This document shows, piece after piece, positions 1 to 48,374 of a stretch of DNA of 48,865 nt. A program made the translations under genes and the position numbers. Under the pieces are notes generated by a model, which was not told the origin of the DNA, made no database searches, and saw only the letters and a list, made by a program, of their open reading frames with translations. Every line of letters begins with the position of its first letter. Position 1 is the first letter of the stretch. Source of the stretch: Nanoarchaeota archaeon SCGC AAA011-G17 (GTDB lineage: Archaea; Nanobdellota; Nanobdellia; SCGC-AAA011-G17); assembly GCA_000402515.1 (NCBI GenBank), contig AQRL01000033.1, positions 1 through 48,865 on the forward strand. The letters are read 5' to 3'.

Positions 1-210
1 TTGCTTATTGCATCCTGAAATAGACATGACAAGCAACAAGGCTGAAAGAATATTAAGAGAGCCAGTAGTGCAGAGGAAGATAAGCTCTTTATGGAATGAG
101 AAAGGAGTAATGATTAAGGAGACAATCATGTCTGTATTAGCAACATGGAATTTGAGGGGGCTCAATACCAACAGCATGCTTAGGGAAACCCTAAGCAGCT
201 AAACGGTTAC
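1..210 (+). mobile_element. Right end of an IS66-family-like insertion sequence, truncated by the window edge
   Basis: A transposase C-terminal frame runs in from the window start. The element ends ...AGCTAAACGGTTAC at 197-210, the exact reverse complement of GTAACCGTTTAGCT at 48722-48735. A GTAA terminus is typical of IS66-family inverted repeats. Confidence 0.6.
2..202 (+). CDS. Transposase, C-terminal fragment (IS66 TnpC-like), 5'-partial
   Basis: The frame is open to the window edge. The motif TSNKAERILREPVVQRKISS resembles the TNNxAERxLRxxVxxRK block of IS66-type transposases. The stop codon lies inside the terminal inverted repeat. Confidence 0.55.
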   Translation, partial: CLLHPEIDMTSNKAERILREPVVQRKISSLWNEKGVMIKETIMSVLATWNLRGLNTNSMLRETLSS

Positions 211-2586
211 GTTAATTCTATTTTGAATCTGTTAAAAGAGATTTCTGCATGAAGTGTTGCTTTTAGGTCTTCTAATGCTGTTTTTAATAATAATTTATCT
301 TCTATATCCAATGTTAATTTTATTTCTTTTTTTAAAGAGACATTTTTCTCTGCCTTGAATTTTCTTACTTGTTTTACTATTTCTACAAACCTGTCTCCTA
401 TTTTCTCTGCATTCTTGTCAACAATAATTTCTTTAGGCCAGGCAGAGATATGGATGCTTTTCTTATTCTCCTTCTTTGCGTAATATGACTGATAGATTTC
501 CTCTGTTATGTGGGGCATTATCGGAGCCATGAGCTTAAGGGTATTTAATAGAACATGATAAAGAGTATACTGCGCTGATAATTTTGCCTCTTTTCCTCTC
601 TTATCTGGATTGTATAGTCTGTCCTTGATTATTTCCAGGTAATTGTCACAAAAGTCATGCCAAAAAAAATTATCAATTAATTTTGTTGAATCCCCTATTT
701 TATAGTGCATCATTAAATCTGTAGATTTTTTTATTAAATGAGATAGCTTTGTTAAAATCCATAAGTCAATCTCTTCTAACTTTTTTGGTTTTTCCAATGG
801 GTAATTTTCCAGATGCATTAGTGCAAATTTAGATGCATTCCATAGTTTTGTTTGAAATTTAGTTCCTGTTACTAAATCTTTTTCCTGGAATGGAAGGTCT
901 TCTCCAAAGGTTGCTGTACCAACCCAGTATCTTATAACATCAACATTGAATTTTTCAAGCAAGTCTTCTGTCCAGATAGCATTCCCCTTTGATTTATGCA
1001 TACCACGACCTTTTGAGTCGAGAACAAATGTACCCAAAGCGATATCTTTCCAGGGTATTTGTTTAAAATGCAGGTATGATTTTAAAATTGTATAAAATGC
1101 CCAAGTCCTTATAATATCATGTGCCTGTGGTCTTAAAGACATTGGAAACATTTTTTTAAAACTCTGCGGTTTTTCCAACCAACGCGTTGCTATCTGTGGA
1201 CTCATACTAGATGTCATCCAAGTGTCAAATACATCCTGATCTGGTATGAATTCTGAGGAACCACATTTACATTTTTTCTTTGGTTGCTGAGAGGTAGGAT
1301 CAATTGGAAGCTCTTTTTTATCAGGCAGAATTATTTTTTTGCATTTTTTACAGTACCATACTGGGATAGGAACACCAAAAAATCTCTGACGAGAGATACA
1401 CCAATCCCATGCCAAGTTCTTAACCCAATCATTATACCTTACCAGATAAAATTCTGGATACCATTTTATTTTCTTTGCCTGTTCTATCAGCTGTTTTTTA
1501 TATTTTAAAGTTTTAATAAACCATTGTGGCGTTACTATGAATTCTACTGGAGTTGAGCATCTCCAACAAGAGCCAACAGTCTGCTCTAAATCCAATTGTG
1601 ATTTTAATCTGTTTTCTTTTTTCAAATCTTGAAGAATTTCTTCTCTTGCTTCTTCTATATTTAATCCATTATATTTTCCTGCATTTCTTAATTTTCCTTG
1701 CTCTGTTAGACATACTTTTAAAGGCAATTTATGTTTTTTCCACCATTCAATATCGGTTGTATCACCAAAGGTACAAATCATAACAATCCCTGTTCCAAAT
1801 TCTCTGTCTACTTTTTCGTCCTTCATTATTGGAACTTTTTGGTTAAACAACGGGACAATTGCTTTTTTCCCAACCAAATTTTTGTATCTCTTATCATCTG
1901 GATGAACAAAAATACCAACACATGCAGATAAAAATTCTGGGCGTGTTGTTGCAATTGTTATTTTTTTACCGTCTTCCAGATCAAAAAGGATTTCATTTAT
2001 CTTTGTAGTTCTCTTTAAATCCTGTACTTCTGCCTGAGCAAGAGCTGTCTGATGATAGGTGCACCAAATTGTCGGCTCTTCTGCTCTATAACAATCTCCT
2101 TTCTCTATTAAATCAAGAAAAGACATTTGGGCGACCTTTTGCGCCTTTTGACCTATTGTTGTGTATAATAAACTCCAATCATAAGAATGCCCCAATGCTC
2201 TAAATACTCTGTCTGCATATGCTTCTTCTACTTCTTTTGATTCTTTTAGGCAGAGCTTTCTAAATTCTGAGCGTGAGATTGTATTCTTTGTTATTTTCAA
2301 TTTTTCTTCAACATATTTTTCTGTTGGTAATCCATTATTATCAAAACATGGAGCAAAATAAACATTAAAATTATTCATTCTTCTAAACCTAGCAATAATT
2401 TCAAATTGTGTATAATGCAAGGCATGACCTACATGCAAGTGACCTGCTGATGCATATGGGGGGGGGAACATCTATTGAGAAGATAGGTTTTTTAGAATTT
2501 ATGTCAAATTTGTAGATTTTGTGCTTTTCCCAGTATTCCTGCCATTTCTTTTCTACTTCAACTGGATTGTAATTTTGTGATAACAT
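207..2586 (-). CDS. valS: Valyl-tRNA synthetase, frame interrupted by one extra base in a C9 tract
   Basis: Class Ia aaRS motifs are present: PPPYASAGHLHVGH (HIGH), TTRPE, DWCISRQR and GMHKSKGN (KMSKS). At ~790 aa the size fits ValRS. The N-terminal 60 aa (ORF 2401-2586, ...IFSIDVPPP) join YASAGHLHVGH only if the G9 run at 2458-2466 (+ strand) is read as 8. Confidence 0.85.
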
Positions 2587-2628
2587 TGACTTTATCTTTA
2601 AGTGTTAAGTATTTAAATTTTAGGATTT

Positions 2629-2657
2629 CACTTGACACACTTGACATGTCAGCGCAG
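2629..2657 (+). promoter_or_regulatory. 29-nt upstream element, tandem CAC(T/A)TGACA x2 plus TGYCAGCGCAG, abutting a TATA box
   Basis: CACTTGACACACTTGACATGTCAGCGCAG matches the reverse complement of 25815-25843 at 27/29 positions. It is followed by CTTATATAG, and the ATG at 2690 lies ~26 nt from the TATA centre. Confidence 0.5.
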
Positions 2658-2674
2658 AACTTATATAGTATTTT

Positions 2675-3352
2675 GTGTTATATTGTAATATGAAATTAAT
2701 AAATTATGACATATACAAATTATCAGAACTAATAGGAATAATAATAGGAGACGGGAATATTTATTATAACCCACAACTAAAAAAGTATTATTTTGAAATT
2801 ACTGGTGACCCAAATTTAGAAAAAGAATATTTTCACCATATTTCTGATTTAATTTTTGATTTATTAAATAAAAAACCAAATATAAGAAAAGGAGGAAGAG
2901 GACTTAGATTAAGATTATATTCAAAAAATTTTGTAGAATTCTTAATTAATATCGTAAAATTGCCTTATGGAGAAGGAAAATGTGAAGTTGTAACTATACC
3001 TGACTGTATATATTCACAAAATTGGGATATAATTAAAAAATGTATAAGGGGCATTACAGATACAGATGGCTCTTTATTCTTATCAAAAAAATACCATAGA
3101 AATGATTATCCTTGTGTAGAGATTAGTACAGTTAGTGAATCTCTAGCTTTTCAACTTAAGGGAATATTGTCCCCACATTATAGGTTAGGTTTTAGGAGTT
3201 TCTCTGCAAAGAATTCCAGAAAAAGATATATTATTTCAATAAATGGAGATATTATGGTAAATAAATGGATTAATGATATTGGTTTTTCTAATCCACATAA
3301 AGGAAGGAAAGCTTATGATATTTTAAAAATGAATGGGACTGGAGGGATTTGA
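2675..3352 (+). CDS. LAGLIDADG-family homing endonuclease, double-motif and free-standing
   Basis: Two LAGLIDADG-type motifs are present: LIGIIIGDGNI and IRGITDTDGSL. The likely true start is the ATG at 2690. The last 19 nt overlap the 3' end of tRNA-Phe on the opposite strand. Confidence 0.8.
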   Translation: MLYCNMKLINYDIYKLSELIGIIIGDGNIYYNPQLKKYYFEITGDPNLEKEYFHHISDLIFDLLNKKPNIRKGGRGLRLRLYSKNFVEFLINIVKLPYGEGKCEVVTIPDCIYSQNWDIIKKCIRGITDTDGSLFLSKKYHRNDYPCVEISTVSESLAFQLKGILSPHYRLGFRSFSAKNSRKRYIISINGDIMVNKWINDIGFSNPHKGRKAYDILKMNGTGGI

Positions 3353-3379
3353 GCCCTCGACCCCACGATCTTCAGTCGT

Positions 3380-3400
3380 CTGAGCTGTAGTTTACTACAT
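3380..3400 (-). other. tRNA-Phe intron 2 (21 nt, between tRNA positions 27 and 28), BHB motif
   Basis: RNA reads GAGC[ACA]UGUAG-UAAA-CUACA-GCUC[AGA]CGA. The central helix is GAGC:GCUC, with 3-nt bulges ACA and AGA and inner helix UGUAG:CUACA. Excision gives the anticodon stem CACGA/UCGUG. Confidence 0.85.
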
Positions 3401-3425
3401 GTGCTCTCCCAGGCTGAGCTACAGT

Positions 3426-3445
3426 TTGATGCACTTTTAGAGTGT
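3426..3445 (-). other. tRNA-Phe intron 1 (20 nt, between tRNA positions 3 and 4), BHB motif
   Basis: RNA reads GAUG[GGA]CACU-CUAAA-AGUG-CAUC[AAA]CUG. The central 4-bp helix is GAUG:CAUC, with 3-nt bulges GGA and AAA and inner helix CACU:AGUG. Cleavage after the second bulge nucleotide gives GGG|ACUG. Confidence 0.8.
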
Positions 3446-3603
3446 CCCATCAAGTACTCAGCACTTAAAGATTAGATAAAATATTCCTTTTAAAAACTTT
3501 TGGATTAGAAATAATAATTTTCTGACACTACCTTGTAGGATACATCAAACGAATTATTTAAATATTAGTTAGTGTTCTTTAATAAAAATAATAAGTGGTG
3601 TAA

Positions 3604-4320
3604 ATGGCTAATTTAAAAAAGATAGGGAGTTTTTTAAAAAGAAGTTTATTAATTACTCTCGCAGCAGGAGCAGTATATTATGCAGGCTTAAAACAAAATC
3701 CTTCTTTTCAAGAATTAACACCCAAAGTACAACAGGTATTAATACAAGAACATAATCAACTTGATAATCTATTAAAAAGTGTTTCTGATGATTTTATAAA
3801 GGGTAATTTTAAAGAGGCTATGGCTAAATTCGGAAATTGTGAAAAATTAGTAAATATGTTAAGTAAGATAGACCCTAAATTTAATGAACTAAAGCCAAGA
3901 TTAGCGGAATATCAACAATTCATAAACTTAATAGGGTTGGCTGTAGATTATGTGGATTATCAAAATAAATATATAAATAATTTAAAAATTGATAAAATAT
4001 CATCAGAATCAATTCTTAATATTGTAACTAGAGATATTCATGAAAATTATATCAGTGACCTAATTACATTTAGTCATAATCCAGGTATTAGCCCAGAGAT
4101 AAGAAAACTTGCACTTAGCGCATCCCAACAATTTTATAAAGAAAGACTAGGTATTATGATAGATTTACGTGATCAAATATTAAAACAAAAAAACCGAGTT
4201 TCTAGTCCTAAACAAGTTCAACAGATTGAAGAGGCATTAAGAATTCTTAATCAAATGATTATCCCTAGGGTGGAAGGACAACTTGAAATTATTGAACAAG
4301 CACTTAAAAGATTAAAATAA
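3604..4320 (+). CDS. Hypothetical membrane-anchored protein
   Basis: Long ORF with an N-terminal hydrophobic helix (LLITLAAGAVYYAGL). I recognise no family motif. Confidence 0.5.
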   Translation: MANLKKIGSFLKRSLLITLAAGAVYYAGLKQNPSFQELTPKVQQVLIQEHNQLDNLLKSVSDDFIKGNFKEAMAKFGNCEKLVNMLSKIDPKFNELKPRLAEYQQFINLIGLAVDYVDYQNKYINNLKIDKISSESILNIVTRDIHENYISDLITFSHNPGISPEIRKLALSASQQFYKERLGIMIDLRDQILKQKNRVSSPKQVQQIEEALRILNQMIIPRVEGQLEIIEQALKRLK

Positions 4321-4668
4321 TCTATATTCTTGAATTGAATAATTGTATAACCTCTTTGGAATAATTACATTAACTTGACATATTTTGTAAGTTCCAGATA
4401 TTTTTTATAGTGTGCTCTGAAGTGACATATGTCACCACCTTAACAGCAGTTTAAATTTAGTAATCTTAACGTCTATAATTAATCATGAGCCTTATTTTTA
4501 TAGTGTTTCTAACACATTTTTATGCAATTTAATAAAAAATCTTTATCGTCAATAAAATTCAATAATCAACTAGTGCCAAATGTCATTGCAGAGCACAAGA
4601 TATTTTTTATAGAAAGGTTTATATTGTAGTTTTTGTTTAGTTTACTGATAAATATATGAGGTGCTTTT

Positions 4669-5208
4669 ATGATGAGATATAACAAAAGGGGTGCTTTAGA
4701 ACTTTCTATGAATACTATTATTATAATTGTTATTGGTGTTACCTTATTGACTTTAGGAATAACATGGGTTAGAAACACTATGGGAAGTGTCAGTGGATTG
4801 AGTGACAAGGCTTTTGAAAATGCTGAGAGAGTATTAGCAGGCGGAGAGGACTTTGAGGGGGCAGTAAATGCTCCTAGCCAGTTAAGCTTGAAGAAAGGAG
4901 AGATAAAACAAGCCATATTTAAAGTTAGAAATACTGGGGAAGATACTAATGATGGGTCTGGAACTTTTAGTATATCAATAGGCAGTACCCCTAATCAAGA
5001 ATTAACCACAATAACTCCTACAGATTGTTTGGTTGTAAAGGCAGTTGGATTAAGTAGTAAATCAATTGATATGGGAAAAGCAGGTGAATTTAGCGTTGGA
5101 ATTTCTGCAAAAAACAGCTGTTCAACAGGGGTTGCAGTATTTCCTGTCTCTATACAAGCAAATGGAAAAGAGATTAGTTCAAGACCATTATATATAACCA
5201 TTAAATAG
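4669..5208 (+). CDS. Archaeal type IV pilin-like protein (class III signal peptide)
   Basis: The N-terminus MMRYNKRGALELSMNTIIIIVIGVTLLTLG has a charged head, a G/A cleavage-like site and a hydrophobic helix. A GAGGTG Shine-Dalgarno-like sequence lies upstream. Confidence 0.55.
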   Translation: MMRYNKRGALELSMNTIIIIVIGVTLLTLGITWVRNTMGSVSGLSDKAFENAERVLAGGEDFEGAVNAPSQLSLKKGEIKQAIFKVRNTGEDTNDGSGTFSISIGSTPNQELTTITPTDCLVVKAVGLSSKSIDMGKAGEFSVGISAKNSCSTGVAVFPVSIQANGKEISSRPLYITIK

Positions 5209-8017: not shown

Positions 8018-9044
8018 ATGGAGGAACATATGGGAAATTTACCCTTTGAAGAGATAAAAAGAAAAATACTTGTAAAAAAGGAAGGCACTACAGATGAAAA
8101 GTATGGATTAAGTCCTGGAAAGAGAGATATTAAAACTCTAATTAATTATGGTGTTGTTGTAATAAACAAACCTGCTGGTCCCACTTCTCATCAAGTAAGC
8201 GCTTATGTAAAAAATATTTTTGGGATAAAACAAGCTGGCCACGGCGGGACTCTAGAGTAAAAATCAGAGAAATCCCAATGTAACTGGTGTTTTGCCTGTT
8301 GCTTTAGGCAGGGCTACAAGGATAGTACAGGGATTATTGAAAGCTGGAAAGGAGTATGTTTGTTTAATGCATATTCACAAGGATGTCAGCGAACAAAGAA
8401 TCAGAGAAGTATTTAATGAGTTCATCGGGAAAATAAAACAAATACCCCCTGTAAGAAGCGCTGTAAAAAGGCAGGAAAGAGAGAGAAATATTTACTATAT
8501 TGAAATATTGGAGATTGATGAAAAAGATGTTCTTTTTAAGATTGGGTGCGAGGCAGGAACATATATCAGAAAAATTTGTGATGACGCGGGAAGAAGATTA
8601 GGAACAGGGGCGCATATGGCTGAATTAATAAGAACAAAGGCAGGACCATTTAGCGAGGACAATTGGTGTTCACTGCATGATTTAAAGGATGCTTATGAAT
8701 TTTATAAAGAGGGAGATGAAGAAGAACTAAAAAAAATAATATTACCAATAGAAAGAGCTGTTGAGCATTTGGGAAAAGTATGGATTTTTGATAATGCAGT
8801 TGATACTGTCTGTCATGGGGCTGATTTGAGCTTGCCAGGAATTTCAAAATTAGAGTCTGATATAAAACAAGGAGAGCTAATAGCTGTTATGACTCTTAAA
8901 GATGAATTAGTTTGTATGGGAGAGGCTTTAAAGAACAGTGAAGAAATGATGGATGAGGAAAAAGGGAAAGCTGTAAAAACAAAAAAAGTGTTTATGGAAA
9001 GAAGTATTTATCCAAAATTTGTTGTGAAGAAAAATGAGTCATAG
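8018..9044 (+). CDS. cbf5: tRNA/rRNA pseudouridine synthase Cbf5 (TruB family), split by a 16-nt BHB intron
   Basis: Exon 1 (8018-8255) ends ...GHGGTL. Exon 2 (8272-9044) continues PNVTGVLPVALGRATR... and includes a C-terminal PUA-like region. Joining G|AU recreates GTLDP, the TruB catalytic Asp motif. The spliced length is 1011 nt (336 aa plus stop). Confidence 0.88.
8256..8271 (+). other. Predicted BHB intron in cbf5 pre-mRNA (16 nt)
   Basis: RNA reads GGGA-CUCU[AGA]GUAAAAAUC-AGAG[AAA]UCCC. The outer helix is GGGA:UCCC (8246-8249 with 8273-8276) and the central helix is CUCU:AGAG (8250-8253 with 8266-8269). The 3-nt bulges are 8254-8256 and 8270-8272. The inner helix is minimal. Confidence 0.75.
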
Positions 9045-24685: not shown

Positions 24686-24993
24686 CAGAAGAATTAAAAG
24701 GGAAAATAGTTTACCTTGGAAAAGGGATAGGAAGAGACTATTATTTAAATTTCAGAGGTGAAAAGAATAAAGTAGATTCTTCTGCCCAAAATTTTGATAG
24801 TATAGAACATGTAGTAGAAGCATTGGCAAATCCTGAAAGAAATGGGATTGATAGTAAATATCTAGGAAAGAGGAGAAAATTCAGTATGATTATTGATGAT
24901 GAGATATCTGATGAAGATTTATCTTATTTAGTGAAAGAAAAAGAAAAACGAAGAATTAAGTTAATGCATTTTGAAAGAGCCAGAGATTTATAA
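24682..24993 (+). CDS. Hypothetical protein
   Basis: ORF with a 4-nt overlap to the upstream gene. Confidence 0.35.
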   Translation: MTEELKGKIVYLGKGIGRDYYLNFRGEKNKVDSSAQNFDSIEHVVEALANPERNGIDSKYLGKRRKFSMIIDDEISDEDLSYLVKEKEKRRIKLMHFERARDL

Positions 24994-25782
24994 ATTATAG
25001 CATTCTTCTCTCAAAGAACAGGCATTGCACTTATTTTTATTTTCCAGTATTCCAGGAGGGTTATCTGCATTCAGAATTTCTTTTATTTCCGTTATTGTAT
25101 TTCTAACTTCAATTTCTGAGAAAGGGTTTAGGATTATTTTCCTGTTTTCATTTGTTTTTATGAAATGAATAAATCCGTGGGTTACTGTCTTGCCCATATT
25201 TTCTTTTGCAAGAAGCATGTAAGAGATTAATTGGATTTTCTGCCCTGGCCAGACTCCATCTCTTGGAGGAGTTCCTGTTTTTAATTCATATGGGATTAGT
25301 GAGCCTTCTGTTAATTCCAATCTGTCTATTATTCCCTTTAATTCTAATCTTTCTGAGTATAGTTTTATTTCTGTAAGGTATTTTGGGGTTAATTTTTCCC
25401 AGAGCTCTTTTCCATAAATATTATTTTTTTGTATAAATGAGAGCACATTGCCTGCCCTTAGCTCTGCCTCTTCCTGAAATCTCGGCCATATATCATGAAA
25501 TACATCTAGTGATTTAAGAGAAAACTCCTTTAGATTGGATTCCTTTAAAATTGATTTTAGTAATGTAAAATAGGTTTTGCTGTATAATTCTTTTATATTT
25601 GTAGATTCTGTTATTGAAGAGACTATTGATTCATCCAATTTGTTTATCTTATCAAACATTGCATGATTTATTGAGCCAAGAAGAAGGATTTCTGATGGGG
25701 GCTCTGGAAACTCCAAGACTTGCTGAAGATATAATTTTCTTGGGCAATACAAATAAGTGGATAGATCTGTTACAGAGAACAT
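24988..25782 (-). CDS. Cas4-family PD-(D/E)xK nuclease (DUF83-like), not CRISPR-associated here
   Basis: N-terminal YLYCPRK Cys, a C-terminal CNACSLREEC cluster, and an EL-K nuclease core (IPYELKTG). Confidence 0.65.
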   Translation of the reverse strand: MFSVTDLSTYLYCPRKLYLQQVLEFPEPPSEILLLGSINHAMFDKINKLDESIVSSITESTNIKELYSKTYFTLLKSILKESNLKEFSLKSLDVFHDIWPRFQEEAELRAGNVLSFIQKNNIYGKELWEKLTPKYLTEIKLYSERLELKGIIDRLELTEGSLIPYELKTGTPPRDGVWPGQKIQLISYMLLAKENMGKTVTHGFIHFIKTNENRKIILNPFSEIEVRNTITEIKEILNADNPPGILENKNKCNACSLREECYNL

Positions 25783-25814
25783 AAGGGCTTATAGTTAATA
25801 ATTGTTTATAAAGC

Positions 25815-25843
25815 CTGCGCTGGCATGTCAAGTGTGTCATGTG
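25815..25843 (-). promoter_or_regulatory. Second copy of the 29-nt upstream element, abutting the TATA box of the Cas4-like gene
   Basis: The minus strand reads CACATGACACACTTGACATGCCAGCGCAG, then GCTTTATAAA. The ATG at 25782 is ~26 nt from the TATA centre, the same spacing as at 2629-2690. Confidence 0.5.
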
Positions 25844-25845
25844 AA

Positions 25846-27306
25846 TTATTTCTTTCCTTTTATTTTAGATAATGCGTATCTTACTGGATTTTTGAACCTT
25901 AATTCTTCTTGAGAAACCTGAACACCCATATCTGCATAATAGGCCTTATTATCATAGTTTGGCGGCGGAAGGACTTCTTTCTGCCTTTTCTGATACGATA
26001 ATTGTGATTTGATATAACCCCATTTTAATTGGGGCTCATTCTTTTCATTCCATTCTTTTAGAATTTTTTCTATGCTATCTAAATCCCAGCCAGCACACCT
26101 CAAAAAGTTTATTAAAATAAAGACTGCTCTTTTCTTTCCATCTTTTAATCCTTTAAGAATATAATTTATTGATGGCGGGAAATCTTTTTCAGGCAGTGCT
26201 GTTGATGGTATCTTGAAGTCTTTTTTTGGCTCTTCTTCTATTGTTATTGATGGCGAATGATCATATGCCTGAATTAATAATCCTTTTGCTTCTCCTGGTT
26301 GTGGTTTTTTGAAAAAGGATGTTACTTCAGATATGTTCTCAATCTTTGCCTGTTTTTTTTCAAATTCCAGTATTTTATCCGGGTCTATTGGAACAGATAT
26401 TAACCCTGATTTTTCATGATGAGAGTATGGAGCACGGTATAAATGCCGTGAAGATATCAATAAGGTGTCTATATCCATTAAGGCATTCATATCAAACTTT
26501 TCTATATATTCTGCTGAATTGCAGTATTTGCATTTGAAATCCTTTGTCTTGGGTTTTGTCATTAATTTCTTGCATTTTGGGCATGTTTTGTATTTTGTTA
26601 TAAAATTTTCCTTTAGTGTGAAATTGCAGTTTGGACAGATAAATTCAGTTTCTGTAATTATTTTTTCCCCTTGTTTTTGACATCTTTTACACATCACTTT
26701 AATTGCTGATTTTCCTTTTTCGGTAAAATATCTTATCAGCTCCCTTTCGGTTATATTCTGCAGAATGTAATTTGATAACTCGTAATCTGTTTTTTCTGAG
26801 TCTATATAATCCATTAGATATTGGGTTATTCTTTTTGGTGCTTCTGGAAATAAATCTGTTATTTTCTGATTGTTTATTGTTTTTGGAAAGGCTTCAAATG
26901 GGACTGAGATATGCAGACCTTTATTCCCTGAAAATTTACAGCCTATTGCTTTAACTCCATGCGCTTTTAGTGCTTTGATTATTAAAAATGCGATATATTT
27001 TGCATAATCCCAGAATTTGCAGTCAATATCTATTATCAAGTCCCAGCCGATTCTTAGTTCATCCAATTGCTTCTGAGACATTCCTGATTTTAACTTTAGG
27101 GGGTTTGACCAATGCTCTTCTGACAGATGAAAAGATGTTGCTCCTGATTTTATAAACTCAATAATATCATTTGGGAATTCCAAGGTATCCGGTCTCTTGC
27201 CAAAATTGTCTCCTGAGCGTATAGAGAACTCTTTATTTTTTGCACAATTAAATATCTCTTCCTGGATATCCTTTCTTGAGTAAAATTTCAAAAGCTCATT
27301 CTTCAT
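25846..27306 (-). CDS. priS: DNA primase, AEP catalytic PriS domain fused to a C-terminal helical PriL/PriX-like domain
   Basis: DLIIDIDC and SGNKGLHISVP catalytic motifs, an internal multi-CxxC zinc module, and a ~120-aa helical C-terminal domain. Confidence 0.7.
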   Translation of the reverse strand: MKNELLKFYSRKDIQEEIFNCAKNKEFSIRSGDNFGKRPDTLEFPNDIIEFIKSGATSFHLSEEHWSNPLKLKSGMSQKQLDELRIGWDLIIDIDCKFWDYAKYIAFLIIKALKAHGVKAIGCKFSGNKGLHISVPFEAFPKTINNQKITDLFPEAPKRITQYLMDYIDSEKTDYELSNYILQNITERELIRYFTEKGKSAIKVMCKRCQKQGEKIITETEFICPNCNFTLKENFITKYKTCPKCKKLMTKPKTKDFKCKYCNSAEYIEKFDMNALMDIDTLLISSRHLYRAPYSHHEKSGLISVPIDPDKILEFEKKQAKIENISEVTSFFKKPQPGEAKGLLIQAYDHSPSITIEEEPKKDFKIPSTALPEKDFPPSINYILKGLKDGKKRAVFILINFLRCAGWDLDSIEKILKEWNEKNEPQLKWGYIKSQLSYQKRQKEVLPPPNYDNKAYYADMGVQVSQEELRFKNPVRYALSKIKGKK

Positions 27307-27388: not shown

Positions 27389-28414
27389 TTAGAAGAGGTT
27401 AGAAGTACAAATTTTTTTTATAACTTCTTTTCTTAATTTATAACTATCGGCCCATTTTGCATAAGCATCCCAACCTTGAAAAATTTCAAACAGCTTTTCT
27501 TTAGAAACTTCATTTTTCTTGTATCTATCAAAAACAAATAACATTTTTCTAATATTCCTTTTTCTTAATAGCCTATAATGATAAAAATTCCTAAATCCAA
27601 CAAAATCTATTCCTCTAGACAAAGAGCTTATCTTTGACTTTTCAGGATGAAGCTCAATTTTTAATTTCTCTTTCAGAAATTTGTCAATTTCAGATTTCCA
27701 GAATTCAAGCTGTGACTTTGACTTATGAAGAATTACAAAATCATCAACATATCTAATATAATATTTAGCCTTTAGTTTATGTTTTACAAAATAATCTAAT
27801 TCATTAAGGTAAACATTAGCAAAAAATTGTGAAGTTAGATTTCCCAAAGGCATCCCTGTTCCTTTATTTTTAGAATCAAAATTATTTAATATTAATTTGA
27901 TAAGAGAGATTACTTCTTTATCTTTTATTTTTCTTCTGATAATATTTATCAAAATTTCATGAGAAACAGTTTCAAAATAATGCCTAATATCTGCTTTAAG
28001 GCAGAATGCGTTTGATTTAAAATTATTTGTTACTTTTCTTTTAAAATAATCAAATCGTTTAATTGCAAATAAATTTCCTTTCCCTATTCTATTTGCACAT
28101 GAATCATAAATAAATCCCCTGTCAAAAATTGGTTCAATTATTCTTATTAAATCATGATGAACAATTCTATCCCTAAAATCAGACTTGCTTATCTTTCTAG
28201 TTTTAGGATCTCGCAAAATAAAAGTTTTTAGAGGCAATGGGTTGTAGGTATGATTCTTTAATTCTTCAGATAGTTTAAGCAAATTTACTAAAGTATCTTT
28301 TTCAAATTCAATTACATAATATTTACTTGTTTTGTGTTTTCTAGCTTTTCTCCAAGCTAAAAGTAAATTACTAAGATTATAAATTTCCTGATAAAGTTCA
28401 TTATTAGTTTCCAT
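27389..28414 (-). CDS. DGR reverse transcriptase (DGR-1)
   Basis: RT motifs include LGNLTSQ (the DGR-type [I/L]GxxxSQ) and YIRYVDDFVI (YxDD). TR lies 29 nt upstream. The protein is paralogous to 46221-47324. Confidence 0.9.
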   Translation of the reverse strand: METNNELYQEIYNLSNLLLAWRKARKHKTSKYYVIEFEKDTLVNLLKLSEELKNHTYNPLPLKTFILRDPKTRKISKSDFRDRIVHHDLIRIIEPIFDRGFIYDSCANRIGKGNLFAIKRFDYFKRKVTNNFKSNAFCLKADIRHYFETVSHEILINIIRRKIKDKEVISLIKLILNNFDSKNKGTGMPLGNLTSQFFANVYLNELDYFVKHKLKAKYYIRYVDDFVILHKSKSQLEFWKSEIDKFLKEKLKIELHPEKSKISSLSRGIDFVGFRNFYHYRLLRKRNIRKMLFVFDRYKKNEVSKEKLFEIFQGWDAYAKWADSYKLRKEVIKKICTSNLF

Positions 28415-28443
28415 ATTAGTATAAGAAATCCTGACTTTTGGGC

Positions 28444-28524
28444 TATTCCACGAACCCTGTCGTCGTAGTACAAGTCCCTATTGTTACCATCAAGATCAGA
28501 ACTGTTGTCAAGGCTCCTAAACCA
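28444..28524 (-). repeat. DGR-1 template repeat (TR1)
   Basis: 81 nt aligns without gaps to 28857-28937 at an offset of 413. There are 12 mismatches, all where TR has T on the + strand, i.e. A on the coding strand. Confidence 0.9.
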
Positions 28525-28724
28525 CAGGGAACTTATAGCCAGAATACCATCACAAAAGATTAACTCTTGCCACTGAAGCTTCACGAATGTTGCTTCTGTA
28601 TTTCATGACTTAAAATCAAATTAATGATGTACTAGTAAACTGGCATGTAGTCCAACTTATACTTCACTGATAGTATATCTATATAGTCAGGACATAACTT
28701 TAGAAATAATCTATTTTAAAATAA

Positions 28725-29453
28725 TTATTGTCTTAAACCATCTAGTAGAATCTTTTCAATTCCAGTTAGACCTTTTGTTTTTAGAACTTTTAAGATTTGT
28801 TTTGGAGTGTAAACTTCAGAATTTTTTTTCGTGCCTTCGACACTAACACTATCACGTACCCCACGAACCCTGACGACGCAGTACAAGACCCTACTGTTAC
28901 CACCAAGAACAGAACTGTAGACAAGGCACCTAAACCATATTTGTCTTGCAAAGGATTTTTCCTGCATATCTGCTAACAAAACAGCCATTTCTTTGATTCC
29001 TGCTTCTTCTCTTAAGAATTGCCCGTATTTTTCAGCATTTTCGCCAAAAGCATAAACAGTTATTTCATTATCTTTAAATCTGTTTGTAGGGATTTCTTTT
29101 GATTCTAGGTTGACTGAATCTGCTAATCCTTCCTCAATCTGCTCATCAGTTAAATAAAACTCTTGACCTTTTCTATGACAATCTGTAGCTTCTTTTGCAT
29201 TTGCCATTATTGGTGAATTCTTTGTTAAAAATCTACCTTTATTAAGAATATATAAAACCCCTTCTCTTGTCCAGTTTCCATTTCTAGAGACATAGGCATC
29301 TTTACCTTCCTGTATTCTTAATCTTGCATTTTCTTCTAAAGAAATAATTTTATAGCCATCTTTAACTAATACTTTTTTTCCTTCATCAAAGGGTGCCTCT
29401 GCATAAGCTGATTCTATTCCTCTTGGTTTTACATCAATACTAACTTTTACCAT
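28725..29453 (-). CDS. DGR-1 variable (target) protein, 242 aa, no signal peptide
   Basis: VR encodes aa 173-199 (WFRCLVYSSVLGGNSRVLYCVVRVRGV), against the TR-encoded WFRSLDNSSDLDGNNRDLYYDDRVRGI. A 43-aa conserved tail follows VR. Confidence 0.85.
   Translation of the reverse strand: MVKVSIDVKPRGIESAYAEAPFDEGKKVLVKDGYKIISLEENARLRIQEGKDAYVSRNGNWTREGVLYILNKGRFLTKNSPIMANAKEATDCHRKGQEFYLTDEQIEEGLADSVNLESKEIPTNRFKDNEITVYAFGENAEKYGQFLREEAGIKEMAVLLADMQEKSFARQIWFRCLVYSSVLGGNSRVLYCVVRVRGVRDSVSVEGTKKNSEVYTPKQILKVLKTKGLTGIEKILLDGLRQ
28857..28937 (-). repeat. DGR-1 variable repeat (VR1)
   Basis: See TR1. A-site-only divergence, in frame inside the target gene. Confidence 0.9.
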
Positions 29454-39911: not shown

Positions 39912-40221
39912 TTTTTATTACACAAAATGCCTTTGTTTTGCTTAATTTTCTACATTCTTTGATTGTGATTTTGTCGCCTTCTTTTACTTTGATACAGTCG
40001 GGCAAATGCGCCTTTATCTTTGTCTTTCTTTTTTCAGATCTTTCATATTTTGGTAGAGGGAAAAGACGGAACCATTCTACTACTATTGTTCTGTGCATCT
40101 TTGCAGATGTAACTGTCCCTGAAAAGGTTCTTCCTCTAAGTTTTAATGAGCCGTGAAATGGGCAGTTAGGATCATTGCAACTAACTGAAACTTCCTTTGC
40201 TTGTTTTTTGTCTGTTTTCAT
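39892..40221 (-). CDS. rps17: Ribosomal protein uS17
   Basis: CNDPNCPFHGSLKLRGRTFSGTVTSAKMHRTIVVE. Confidence 0.92.
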   Translation of the reverse strand: MKTDKKQAKEVSVSCNDPNCPFHGSLKLRGRTFSGTVTSAKMHRTIVVEWFRLFPLPKYERSEKRKTKIKAHLPDCIKVKEGDKITIKECRKLSKTKAFCVIKNESTQS

Positions 40222-40466
40222 TTTTTTATCCTATCTTCTGGACGGGTTTGTAAAACTTTTCCGTCGATTTCATATATATTATTTTTTATTTTTATTTTGA
40301 ATGTTGATTGTGATTTCATCAGTTTTTTTTGATTGTCTAATATTATCATATTTTTTGTTTCGTCTATTACCTTTCCTTTAATCCCAATCAGTGACTTATT
40401 CTTTGATTTTGTTATCTCTATATCTTTACCTATTAGATTCATACTTACTATGTCTTTTGTTTGCAT
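40218..40466 (-). CDS. rnp1: RNase P protein component 1 (Rpp29/Pop4)
   Basis: LIGKDIEITKSKNKSLIGIKGKVIDETKNMIIL. Conserved position between rpl29/aIF1 and rps17. Confidence 0.85.
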   Translation of the reverse strand: MQTKDIVSMNLIGKDIEITKSKNKSLIGIKGKVIDETKNMIILDNQKKLMKSQSTFKIKIKNNIYEIDGKVLQTRPEDRIKK

Positions 40467-46220: not shown

Positions 46221-47324
46221 TTAAATTTTTGTTTCTCTTAATAATCTATTCACTTCTATTGATGAAATCTGATTAGAAAACATATACTCAAAATCTTTAG
46301 TGAACTGCTTTCTTAATTTATAAGTATCTGCATGCTTAGCATAAGCAATCCATCCTTCAAAACTTGCATAAATTTTATCATAATCAATCTTCCTTTCATT
46401 TAATTTGTATTTTGTTAATTTATTTCTCATCTTTTTTATATTTCTTTTATTTAATAACTTATGATAATAAAATACCCTGAAGCCCAATAAACTAATTCCT
46501 TTGCTTAATAAAATTATTTTGGATTTATCTGGATGCAATTCTAAGTTTATTGTTTTTAAAAAGGCACCAATCTTATTTTTATAATCAAATAATACCCCAT
46601 AATTATTATGAATTATCACAAAATCATCTACATATCTAATATAATATTTTGCCTTTAATTTATGTTTTACAAAATAGTCTAATTCATTAAGATAAACATT
46701 AGCAAAGAACTGGGAAGTTAGATTTCCCAATGGCATTCCTATCCCTTTATTTTTGGAATTAAAATTATCTAGTATTAATTTAATAAGCAATATTATTTTT
46801 TCATCTTTTATTTTTCTTTTAATAATCTCAATTAAAACTTTGTGAAAAACAGTATCAAAATAGTGCTTAATATCTGCCTTTAAAATATAAGCTTCCCTTG
46901 TATTATTCTTAGTAACTTTCCTTTTAAAATAATCAAATCTTTCCAATGCCTTAAATGCCCCCTTAAATTTTCTATTTGCATACGAATCAAAGATAAATAT
47001 TTTTTCAAATATTGGTTCAATAATATTACACAAAACATGGTGAATAATTCTGTCTTTAAAATCAGACTTGCTTATTTTTCTGGTCTTTGGATCCCTAAGG
47101 ATGAAGGTTTCCAAAGGTTTTGGCCTATAAGAATGAAACATAATTTCTGACCTTAATTGAAGCAGATTTTCCTTAAGATTCTTCTCAAACTCAACAACAT
47201 AATCTTTTTTTGTCTTATTTTTTCTTGCTTTTTTATATGCTAGTTTAATATTTTCATAACTACATAGAGAAATCCATAAATTAGTGTAAGTATGCATTTG
47301 ATTATTAAATGCCTTGGCAAACAC
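46221..47324 (-). CDS. DGR reverse transcriptase (DGR-2)
   Basis: GMPLGNLTSQFFANVYLNELDYFVKHKLKAKYYIRYVDDFVI is identical to the DGR-1 RT over this stretch. By alignment to RT-1 the likely true start is the ATG at 47297, which leaves a 32-nt TR-RT spacer. Confidence 0.9.
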   Translation of the reverse strand: MFAKAFNNQMHTYTNLWISLCSYENIKLAYKKARKNKTKKDYVVEFEKNLKENLLQLRSEIMFHSYRPKPLETFILRDPKTRKISKSDFKDRIIHHVLCNIIEPIFEKIFIFDSYANRKFKGAFKALERFDYFKRKVTKNNTREAYILKADIKHYFDTVFHKVLIEIIKRKIKDEKIILLIKLILDNFNSKNKGIGMPLGNLTSQFFANVYLNELDYFVKHKLKAKYYIRYVDDFVIIHNNYGVLFDYKNKIGAFLKTINLELHPDKSKIILLSKGISLLGFRVFYYHKLLNKRNIKKMRNKLTKYKLNERKIDYDKIYASFEGWIAYAKHADTYKLRKQFTKDFEYMFSNQISSIEVNRLLRETKI

Positions 47325-47329
47325 AGGAT

Positions 47330-47416
47330 TATTCCAACAAAACGAGCATTGTTGTTGATGTTGTTGTTACCATTAAGACCATTGTTGCAGTTGTCGCCAA
47401 CGAACAGCAAACGCCC
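47330..47416 (-). repeat. DGR-2 template repeat (TR2)
   Basis: 87 nt aligns without gaps to 47748-47834 at an offset of 418. There are 10 mismatches, all at TR T on the + strand (coding-strand A). TR encodes the AAY-rich GRLLFVGDNCNNGLNGNNNINNNARFVGI. Confidence 0.92.
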
Positions 47417-47606
47417 GCTATATAGCCTGCTTATCCTTAATTGCAATGCTGTTTCATCTGTTCAATATTTACTAAGTGTCACAGCTGTATTTTATAACCA
47501 TTAAATGGCCATGATAAACAGGCGTGTAGCCCTGAGATATCTAACTATCACAAATCAAGTTAAATAATACCAAGACAAAGTAAAAAAGAGAAAGAAGTTT
47601 AAAAAT

Positions 47607-48374
47607 TTATTTGTATAATGCTTTTATTTTATTTTCATATTCTTTTCTAGTTGCTTTTGGAACAAAATTTTTTGAAACCTTCAAAATTTGCTCTATAGTC
47701 GGTGCTGAAATTTTTTGCGCAGTGCCTTCGGCACTAGCACTACCACGTACCCCAACAAAACGAGCATAGTTGCCGATGCCGTAGTTACCAATAAGACCAT
47801 TGTTGCAGTAGTCGCCAACGAACAGCAAACGCCCTAATGGCTCATCTTTTAAATCATCACAATGCCAGATTCCTATATTATTTCCATAAACCTGTTTAAA
47901 TTTTTCAAGATATCTTTGGGCTCTTTCCTCTCCGCCAATAAAAGGGATAGTTTGGGGATGCTCCAATGCTCTTTCAACTGGAATTACTCCTGAACTTGAA
48001 CTTTTAAGCTTATCATAATCAATAACAAAAACATTCTTATTATCCCCTAAATCCAATAATCTCTGAAATTCATCTACCGGCATAACTCCTGCACCGTTTA
48101 TTCTCTCTGCATTTCTTATATTTTCAGGATTAGAAAGATAATTATCAACATGGACATATACAACTACTGGGTTTCCCTGCTTGGTTCTTCCTGTTGCCCT
48201 TATGCTTGGTGCAGTAAGCCAGTTGCTTAATAAGCTTGAACCTTTAGTTGCTAAAATTTTTGCGTCTATCAGTTCAGGCATGAATAAAGCATGACCGTAT
48301 TTCTGACAGCTTTCTAAGGCTGTAGCCATATCACTATTATAAAACTCTTTTGCTTGCTTTCTGTTTATTTCCAT
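47607..48374 (-). CDS. DGR-2 variable (target) protein, 255 aa, no signal peptide
   Basis: VR encodes aa 181-209 (GRLLFVGDYCNNGLIGNYGIGNYARFVGV). The 46-aa tail is conserved with target 1 (...EGT...P..ILKV.K...). Confidence 0.85.
   Translation of the reverse strand: MEINRKQAKEFYNSDMATALESCQKYGHALFMPELIDAKILATKGSSLLSNWLTAPSIRATGRTKQGNPVVVYVHVDNYLSNPENIRNAERINGAGVMPVDEFQRLLDLGDNKNVFVIDYDKLKSSSSGVIPVERALEHPQTIPFIGGEERAQRYLEKFKQVYGNNIGIWHCDDLKDEPLGRLLFVGDYCNNGLIGNYGIGNYARFVGVRGSASAEGTAQKISAPTIEQILKVSKNFVPKATRKEYENKIKALYK
47748..47834 (-). repeat. DGR-2 variable repeat (VR2)
   Basis: See TR2. Confidence 0.92.

Follow-up and report, generated by a model that had tools for sequence, protein, structure and literature searches.

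Non-canonical and multiple transfer RNA introns have been documented in the Thermoproteales, including introns between tRNA positions 3 and 4 (Sugahara et al. 2008, as cited in passages of PMC4090602 and PMC4033280). In the DPANN superphylum, a splicing endonuclease (EndA) of the epsilon2 type is described for ARMAN-2 in part of PMC3239211. Passages of PMC5829648 report that alpha4 EndAs with an L3 loop, found in several DPANN lineages (Pace- and Woesearchaeota), go with markedly more disrupted tRNA genes, and that incomplete DPANN tRNA sets imply undetected disrupted genes. Here we analysed a stretch of 48,865 nt from a tiny groundwater archaeon of the DPANN superphylum ('Nanoarchaeota' in the broad sense), SCGC AAA011-G17 (contig AQRL01000033.1; the whole stretch is called the window below), and found on its minus strand a tRNA-Phe(GAA) gene interrupted by two short introns of the bulge-helix-bulge (BHB) type, one at position 3/4 and one at 27/28. 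With a probability of about 0.9, we consider that this is a functional gene whose introns are spliced by proteins. The gene belongs to a known class, because multi-intron DPANN tRNAs and the Thermoproteales 3/4 intron have already been published. An initial annotation of the window had described such genes as known mainly from Thermoproteales and some DPANN or ARMAN lineages; cases in both groups are indeed on record, which makes the setting less exotic than was implied (PMC5829648, PMC4090602).

When the unspliced DNA was searched with ARAGORN, no tRNA was called in the whole window, nor in the region when the intron option was switched on, and Rfam at gathering thresholds returned two RT-16 RNAs and no tRNA across the window. 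At lax thresholds the Rfam tRNA model scored 19.1 bits against a threshold of 29 and aligned with 3399–3340, the 3′ two thirds of the gene, only. In contrast to these unspliced searches, excision of 3445..3426 and 3400..3380 from 3448..3334 of the minus strand gave a 74-nt product that ARAGORN called as tRNA-Phe(GAA). The cloverleaf was the RNAfold minimum-energy structure of this product. Its acceptor stem comprised seven perfect base pairs (GGGACUG:CAGUCCC), and it showed the anticodon GAA, G18 G19 G20, U33, G37, A73 and standard stems, with CCA not encoded. U54 is near-universal in tRNA T loops; here the loop reads C54 U55 C56 A57 A58 (CUCAAAU), departing from the conserved U54-U55-C56-R57-A58 at its first base (window position 3355, minus strand). 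The same C54 was found in L021 (L-numbers denote loci of relatives), and U54 in the other tRNA-Phe genes that were read through to the T arm. The initial annotation had located the gene and both introns exactly, as direct reading and ARAGORN confirmed together with the minus strand. It had also stated that no cloverleaf can be drawn on the genomic DNA and that general scanners may miss the gene, and both statements agree with the searches above; the spliced product that it called perfect is so in its acceptor stem and its ARAGORN call but not in its T loop. General scanners see no tRNA-Phe in this genome, and the gene supplies that missing member of the tRNA set.

In the archaeal BHB motif each strand runs in the order helix, 4-nt central helix, 3-nt bulge cut after its second nucleotide, helix. 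We found that intron 1 is framed as GAUG GG/A CACU cuaaa AGUG CAUC AA/A (a slash marks the cut), with central helix GAUG:CAUC, bulges GGA and AAA and the inner hairpin CACU-cuaaa-AGUG. Intron 2 is framed as GAGC AC/A UGUAG uaaa CUACA GCUC AG/A, with central helix GAGC:GCUC, bulges ACA and AGA and the inner hairpin UGUAG-uaaa-CUACA. Both introns thus have a 4-bp central helix with a 3-nt bulge on each strand, in register with the exon junctions required by the cloverleaf, and excision at these bulges restores the 74-nt tRNA-Phe with its cloverleaf minimum-energy fold. When the precursor was folded without constraints, both cores formed in the minimum-energy structure, and their pair probabilities were 0.86–1.0. 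The motif table and the folds agreed that the 5′ strand of the first central helix consists of three leader nucleotides, GAU (3451–3449), plus G1, pairing with CAUC, and the motif table showed the 3′ strand of the D stem, GAGC, pairing with GCUC at the 3′ end of intron 2; the initial annotation had proposed both arrangements.

Outside the cores, neither intron had the strict hBHBh′ form, in which outer helices of at least 2 bp adjoin both bulges. None of the four carriers of intron 2 (window, L021, L026 and L046) showed an outer helix for it, and the outer helix of intron 1 in the window, formed in the minimum-energy folds by leader GCUGAGUAC (3462–3454) and exon-2 nucleotides 7–16, is separated from the central helix by a 2 × 2 mismatch. 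We therefore placed both motifs in the relaxed class, which on their geometry would need a broad-specificity endonuclease. Hence the earlier description of canonical, textbook BHBs holds for the 4-bp central helices, the 3-nt bulges and the inner hairpins, and fails for the outer helices. All six bulges of the window, those of a cbf5 intron included, have A as their third nucleotide, as had been pointed out; this is not a rule, because relatives L001, L006 and L007 have U. As a separate observation, the 3′ part of intron 2 (3380–3391, minus strand; ACUACAGCUCAG) matches exon positions 4–15 (3414–3425, minus strand; ACUGUAGCUCAG) at 10 of 12 bases, and so mimics the 5′ strand of the D stem, which it replaces in the precursor. 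The resemblance may be the trace of an origin by local duplication.

BHB-like cores by themselves are common in AT-rich DNA, and the window contained 9,110 candidates, or about 8e-4 per position and length. At that frequency, two cores in register with cloverleaf-defined junctions are expected at roughly 1e-6. Furthermore, a BHB-aware scan of 92,198 single and double in silico excisions on both strands revealed that every tRNA called by ARAGORN had one or both of introns 1 and 2 removed. On this expectation and the specificity of the scan, a chance origin of the two cores was rejected.

The findings were extended to relatives. A genome scan, with one genome per species and a pattern of tRNA-Phe with 11–41 extra bases between D stem and anticodon loop, yielded 19 loci, 11 of them from metagenome-assembled genomes of Nano-, Woese- and Aenigmarchaeota. 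A metagenome scan, in which the D-arm and anticodon-stem sequence of the window was the query and the insert at 27/28 was optional, yielded 8 loci, a sample not selected for intron 2. Intron positions were assigned by spliced alignment to the mature sequence of the window and by inspection, with an accuracy of 1–2 nt. ARAGORN in intron mode gave contradictory calls (Leu, Ser, Cys and others) on relaxed BHB candidates in the relatives and was rejected as evidence. The base pairs were tabulated in a register set by hand, because MAFFT misaligned the five intron-1 regions, aligning GGG of the window with bases of the L001 leader.

Both introns were kept in L021, from a Hainich groundwater metagenome, where the exons and intron 2 were identical to those of the window. 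Its intron 1 had the central helix AAUG:CAUU, a compensatory change of the first pair from G-C to A-U, and an inner helix longer by one pair (CACAU/AUGUG against CACU/AGUG in the window). In addition, a U to C change in the leader of L021 converted a G.U of the outer helix into G-C, so the leader helix was kept. L001, L006 and L007 had introns of 16–17 nt at the same 3/4 site, with the central helix GAUG:CAUU and a contiguous 7-bp outer helix between leader and exon. The first central pair of intron 1 was therefore G-C in the window, A-U in L021 and G.U in L001, L006 and L007, and the inner helix had 4 bp, 5 bp and 3 bp, respectively. At the 27/28 site, L026 and L046 shared the GAGC...GCU(C/U) frame around unrelated or diverged inner sequences, with inner helices UUAAC/GUUAA and UGUAU/AUACA beside UGUAG/CUACA of the window. 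These changes are compensatory within the BHB helices, in a small sample of 4–5 sequences in the hand-set register. Collectively, the excision scan and the relatives that share the sites (L021, L001, L006, L007, L026 and L046) bore out the two introns at 3/4 and 27/28 that had been proposed. L012 carried a hairpin closely resembling intron 2 of the window, but at 30/31, and intron-free alleles with the same exon sequence were found in L022 and L027 (GGGAGAGCACACGACUGAAGAUCGUG context). Syntenic orthologues in other lineages likewise bore introns, each the sole tRNA-Phe seen at that locus. DPANN lineages thus share specific non-canonical intron sites, namely 3/4, 27/28 and 30/31.

The best element resembling a transcription factor B recognition element (BRE) and a TATA box was located upstream of 27 tRNA-Phe genes, and the spacing between the end of that TATA box and G1 was measured. 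All seven genes whose acceptor stem carries an intron in its 5′ strand had a spacing of 35–39 nt (window 39, L021 36, L001, L006 and L007 37, L003 38 and L018 35), compared with 23–30 nt in 17 of 20 genes whose acceptor stem is uninterrupted (L005, L012, L013, L015, L017, L020, L022, L023, L025–L027, L033, L037, L043, L046, L048 and L049). The usual archaeal spacing between TATA box and start would place the transcription start of the window gene about 14–16 nt upstream of G1. It also suggests that genes without an acceptor-stem intron are nearly leaderless, and that genes with one have a leader of about 12–16 nt, which is just the part that pairs. Near-leaderless tRNA transcripts have been reported for Nanoarchaeum equitans. 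Where the first intron depends on the leader, the promoter stands about 12 nt farther upstream of G1, which ties promoter placement to splicing. Because three leader nucleotides belong to the first central helix, the leader has to be transcribed and splicing has to come before RNase P cleavage; the leader-dependent first intron thus predicts a fixed order, splicing and then RNase P. The gene for the RNase P protein subunit p29 lies in the window, within a ribosomal-protein operon, and the enzyme for removing the leader after splicing is therefore present. Separately, we note that near-leaderless tRNA-Phe genes are implied in DPANN archaea, yet the window encodes p29.

A maturation pathway can be proposed from these elements. 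Transcription would start from the TATA box that is shifted relative to orthologues without the first intron. In the precursor, the leader would pair with exon 2 and supply three of the four nucleotides in the 5′ strand of the first central helix, and GCUC at the 3′ end of intron 2 would pair with GAGC of the D stem; with these pairings, neither the D stem nor the acceptor stem could form. A broad-specificity EndA would then cut the four 3-nt bulges, an RtcB-type ligase would join the three exons, and the spliced RNA would refold to the cloverleaf. After refolding, RNase P would remove the leader, the trailer would be trimmed and CCA would be added. The T-rich sequence that follows the gene is a likely terminator.

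Several points weigh against a functional two-intron gene. The T loop has C at position 54, intron 2, lacking an outer helix, would not be cut by a strict endonuclease, and the transcription start was placed from TATA spacing alone, while L002, L039 (which has an intron at 9/10) and L045 have distant or weak TATA matches although they have no acceptor-stem intron. Neither an EndA nor an RtcB gene was found in the window, which is part of a partial single-cell assembly, and a second, intron-free tRNA-Phe gene may exist elsewhere in that assembly. Expression of the locus is deduced from its sequence. Some of these points, the C54 and the deduced expression, together with the invisibility of the gene to standard scanners, would suit a decaying tRNA pseudogene in which two insertions happen to be flanked by fortuitous BHB-like pairings. 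We consider this very unlikely, since both insertions are framed by in-register cores expected at about 1e-6 from the window background, L021 combines 100% identical exons with compensatory changes in intron 1, a promoter and a T-rich trailer are present, and syntenic orthologues in other lineages are intron-bearing too, each being the sole tRNA-Phe seen there. Weaker still, and hardly credible, is the reading that intron 2 alone is real and that the tRNA starts inside 'intron 1' with an imperfect extended acceptor stem: removing intron 2 alone does let ARAGORN call a 76-nt tRNA-Phe, but its 8-pair acceptor stem has three consecutive mismatches (C.C, A.C and A.C) and no G1-C72, the removal of intron 1 restores GGGACUG:CAGUCCC, the BHB of intron 1 shows covariation in L021 and is found again at 3/4 in L001, L006 and L007, and only a required leader accounts for the displaced promoter.

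The functional two-intron tRNA-Phe gene has a neighbour that bears on how such introns might be gained. A gene for a two-domain LAGLIDADG endonuclease of 220 aa lies on the opposite strand, convergent with the tRNA gene, and overlaps its 3′ end by 19 nt. Among the convergent copies whose 3′ end was read, the stop codon TGA was the complement of U55-C56-A57 of the T loop in the window, L012 and L049, and L048 read through in another frame. The motifs LIGIIIGDG and IRGITDTDGS keep their acidic residues, and D21 and D126 were nearly invariant across 16 homologues. The AlphaFold model (pLDDT 93.5, pTM 0.90) showed the double-domain alpha-beta-beta-alpha-beta-beta-alpha fold, and Foldseek matched it with PI-PfuI (TMq 0.74), I-Tsp061I (0.65/0.70) and I-DmoI (0.61/0.75), a TM range of 0.61–0.75. 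In sequence searches, phmmer against I-DmoI gave E = 0.002 and the Pfam scores of the protein were below the gathering cut-offs. The gene is free-standing, encoded within neither an intron nor an intein. An exact look-up of its protein matched contig AQYW01000078.1 of GCA_000380905.1, and that of ORF 3604–4320 gave no match.

The family comprised at least 58 homologues, and the surroundings of 10 were sampled. All ten abutted an intron-bearing tRNA gene, nine of them tRNA-Phe and one, beside a member 37% identical, resembling tRNA-Thr(GGU); the nine tRNA-Phe genes all had an intron between positions 23 and 31. The endonuclease gene either preceded the tRNA gene in tandem or converged on its 3′ end, and the protein neighbours varied: an aminoacyl-tRNA synthetase, topoisomerase VI/GT2/EndA, GT2/TsaD, HSP20, or a lactamase-fold gene. 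Homologues beside tRNA-Phe were first met in several loci retrieved solely on account of their tRNA. A motif regular expression was too strict and missed known copies, and was replaced by a hidden Markov model (HMM) of the family alignment together with Pfam. In the metagenome sample, the 27/28 intron was found in L021 and L026, as in the window, each with an adjacent LAGLIDADG-type open reading frame (ORF), although that of L021 had one motif and an hhalign probability of 32%. L020, L022, L023, L025 and L027 lacked the 27/28 intron and, by Pfam and the family HMM, also an adjacent ORF of this type. One candidate, ORF 6127–6807 of L023, converges on the tRNA gene but is not LAGLIDADG-like. Among the other copies, L007 was frameshifted and L006 had diverged. 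In L039, an 838-kb contig with a distant member of the family, the LAGLIDADG gene, a two-intron tRNA-Phe gene and a gene for a 190-aa EndA stand in a row (2001–3349).

When the window was compared with L021, a 1.8-kb contig at 2x coverage, the DNA beside tRNA-Phe was 81–98% identical (2318–2704, 3324–3495 and 4603–4805), compared with about 49% for the protein of the synthetase gene. Between the two, the segment with the tRNA has the opposite orientation with respect to its flanks, and the LAGLIDADG ORF of the window and ORF 3604–4320 stand where L021 has a different ORF of 152 aa with a single LAGLIDADG-like motif. This mosaic would reflect either a recent exchange of the locus or a chimeric low-coverage L021 contig. 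The class I synthetase gene that adjoins the locus in the window (207–2586, minus strand) probably starts near 2586, giving 792 aa in the NCBI gene call; its first ATG is at 2471.

These results permit a further layer to be added to the two-intron gene, one that is not an alternative to it: the tRNA gene and the abutting endonuclease gene may form a homing cassette, an idea that we hold as possible but doubtful. In this scheme, tRNA-Phe genes that lack an intron would be cleaved by the endonuclease within or close to the region of the D stem and anticodon stem, and the break would be repaired by copying in both the endonuclease gene and the intron-bearing tRNA beside it; the carrier allele would escape cleavage through its intron at 23–31. 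Archaeal tRNA introns are too short to carry an endonuclease gene of their own. By analogy with phages, the arrangement would amount to collaborative, or trans, homing for BHB introns too small for such a gene (PMC2790892).

The confident two-domain fold, nearest to archaeal intron and intein endonucleases, and its nearly invariant acidic residues argue for this idea, as do the ten-out-of-ten adjacency to intron-bearing tRNAs amid differing protein neighbours and the intron at 23–31 in every one of the nine Phe genes. The 27/28 intron and the adjacent LAGLIDADG-type ORF occurred together in three loci and were both absent from five, the frameshifted and diverged copies are the decay expected from an endonuclease life cycle, and in the comparison with L021 the DNA just around the tRNA is 87–98% identical against about 49% for the synthetase protein. 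On the other side, the support is one of association, with cleavage and target site putative, and the samples, which are small, are not independent of one another in phylogeny. L003, L005, L013, L015 and L017 have introns in that region with no adjacent endonuclease gene, and the ORF of L021 is weakly LAGLIDADG-like and its contig could be chimeric. Furthermore, the endonuclease is conserved as well as or better than the synthetase (64% against 50%, window against L012), which fits a domesticated host function too.

More generally, and again tentatively, the I-DmoI-like free-standing proteins may be a DPANN family dedicated to tRNA genes, mainly tRNA-Phe, that mobilises, or is shielded by, the small BHB introns next to it. 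Were this the case, the gain and spread of archaeal tRNA introns would for the first time have a concrete mechanism at the DNA level, and the clustering of intron positions at 23–31 in LAGLIDADG-flanked tRNA-Phe genes would be explained. No paper that connects LAGLIDADG genes with DPANN and tRNA introns turned up in a literature search. The adjacency itself makes the gain and movement of archaeal tRNA introns, an old question, directly testable.

Other elements of the window are listed with the tRNA locus in Table 1. The 16-nt intron of cbf5 has the outer helix GGGA:UCCC, the central helix CUCU:AGAG and the bulges AG/A and AA/A, and interrupts the catalytic Asp codon behind its first letter, where splicing restores GHGGTLDPNVTGVLPV; the organism therefore uses BHB splicing beyond tRNA. 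The crenarchaeal cbf5 intron occupies the same site, and the N. equitans gene has been treated as intron-less (PMC2738675); our literature search found no report of a cbf5 intron in DPANN. The window also carries two diversity-generating retroelements (DGRs), at 27389–29453 and 46221–48374, both on the minus strand, whose template and variable repeats differ at T of the plus strand, that is, A of the coding strand. The presence of two DGRs would fit the DUSEL 'Nanoarchaeota' single cells of PMC4372165. The nuclease and primase-polymerase-like genes directly beside the first of them (24988–27306, minus strand) may be part of an integrated element.

Table 1. Features of the tRNA-Phe(GAA) locus and other elements of the window
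Feature	Position	Strand	Sequence or detail	Evidence
BRE-like element	3497-3501	-	AAAAG, purine-rich; precedes TATA-like box
TATA-like box	3488..3495	-	TTTTAAAA; ends 39 nt upstream of G1	best TATA match (8/8)
5′ leader	3449..3464	-		minimum-energy folds
Leader directly 5′ of GGG		-	...GCUGAGUACUUGAU
Exon 1	3446..3448	-	G1 G2 G3 (GGG)	pairs with C70-C72 once spliced
Intron 1	3426..3445	-	20 nt, between tRNA positions 3 and 4; ACACUCUAAAAGUGCAUCAA	ARAGORN, excision scan, motif table
Exon 2	3401..3425	-	positions 4-27 (remaining acceptor 5′ strand, D arm, A26, C27); ACUGUAGCUCAGCCUGGGAGAGCAC
Intron 2	3380..3400	-	21 nt, between positions 27 and 28; AUGUAGUAAACUACAGCUCAG	ARAGORN, excision scan, motif table
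Exon 3	3334..3379	-	positions 28-73 (anticodon arm with GAA, variable loop, T arm, acceptor 3′ strand, A73); ACGACUGAAGAUCGUGGGGUCGAGGGCUCAAAUCCCUCCAGUCCCA
T-rich trailer	3325..3333	-	UUCAUUUUU	read from sequence
LAGLIDADG endonuclease gene	2690..3352	+	free-standing, two-domain, 220 aa	motifs, AlphaFold, Foldseek
RNase P subunit p29 gene	40218..40466	-	in ribosomal-protein operon	Pfam PF01868, E = 1.7e-21
cbf5	8018-9044	+
cbf5 intron	8256-8271	+	BHB-type, 16 nt
Cas4/PD-(D/E)XK nuclease gene	24988-25782	-	directly beside DGR 1
Primase-polymerase-like gene	25846-27306	-	directly beside DGR 1
DGR 1 reverse transcriptase (RT)	27389-28414	-
DGR 1 template repeat	28448-28524	-
DGR 1 RT-16 RNA	28530-28692	-
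DGR 1 variable repeat	28861-28937	-	in ORF 28725-29453
DGR 2 RT	46221-47324	-
DGR 2 template repeat	47334-47416	-
DGR 2 RT-16 RNA	47417-47575	-
DGR 2 variable repeat	47752-47834	-	in ORF 47607-48374

Compared with the multi-intron tRNAs of Thermoproteales, whose genes have up to three introns each according to the passages cited at the outset, the window gene has the same short BHB introns at non-canonical positions, the same acceptor-stem 3/4 site and relaxed motifs of the kind that go with a broad-specificity EndA. The Thermoproteales are hyperthermophilic crenarchaeotes, whereas the host here is a mesophilic DPANN archaeon of 32% G+C, and the 3/4 motif here is visibly leader-dependent, with the promoter displaced accordingly. 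The disrupted tRNA genes of other DPANN archaea represent the same phenomenon in the same superphylum, and the window gene is one such undetected gene; the relevant passages of PMC3239211 and PMC5829648 give genome-level counts, and do not describe this gene, the shared 3/4 and 27/28 sites or the endonuclease neighbour. As in the split tRNA genes of N. equitans, an exon pairs with leader or trailer sequence, which is not part of the mature tRNA, to form a relaxed BHB of the kind that EndA cuts. Unlike those, the gene is continuous and would be cis-spliced, so that the leader stays on exon 1 and RNase P, a subunit of which is encoded in the window, is needed afterwards. The neighbouring protein resembles I-DmoI and I-Tsp061I, which are encoded in BHB introns of archaeal rRNA, in being an I-DmoI-like LAGLIDADG protein linked to BHB introns, but its gene lies outside the intron, on either side of the tRNA gene, and its target and mobility are putative. 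In having a free-standing gene it is like the phage systems of collaborative or trans homing (F-CphI/psbA, and MobE/nrdB; PMC2790892), in which a free-standing endonuclease gene likewise lies within about 100 bp of an intron that has no endonuclease of its own.

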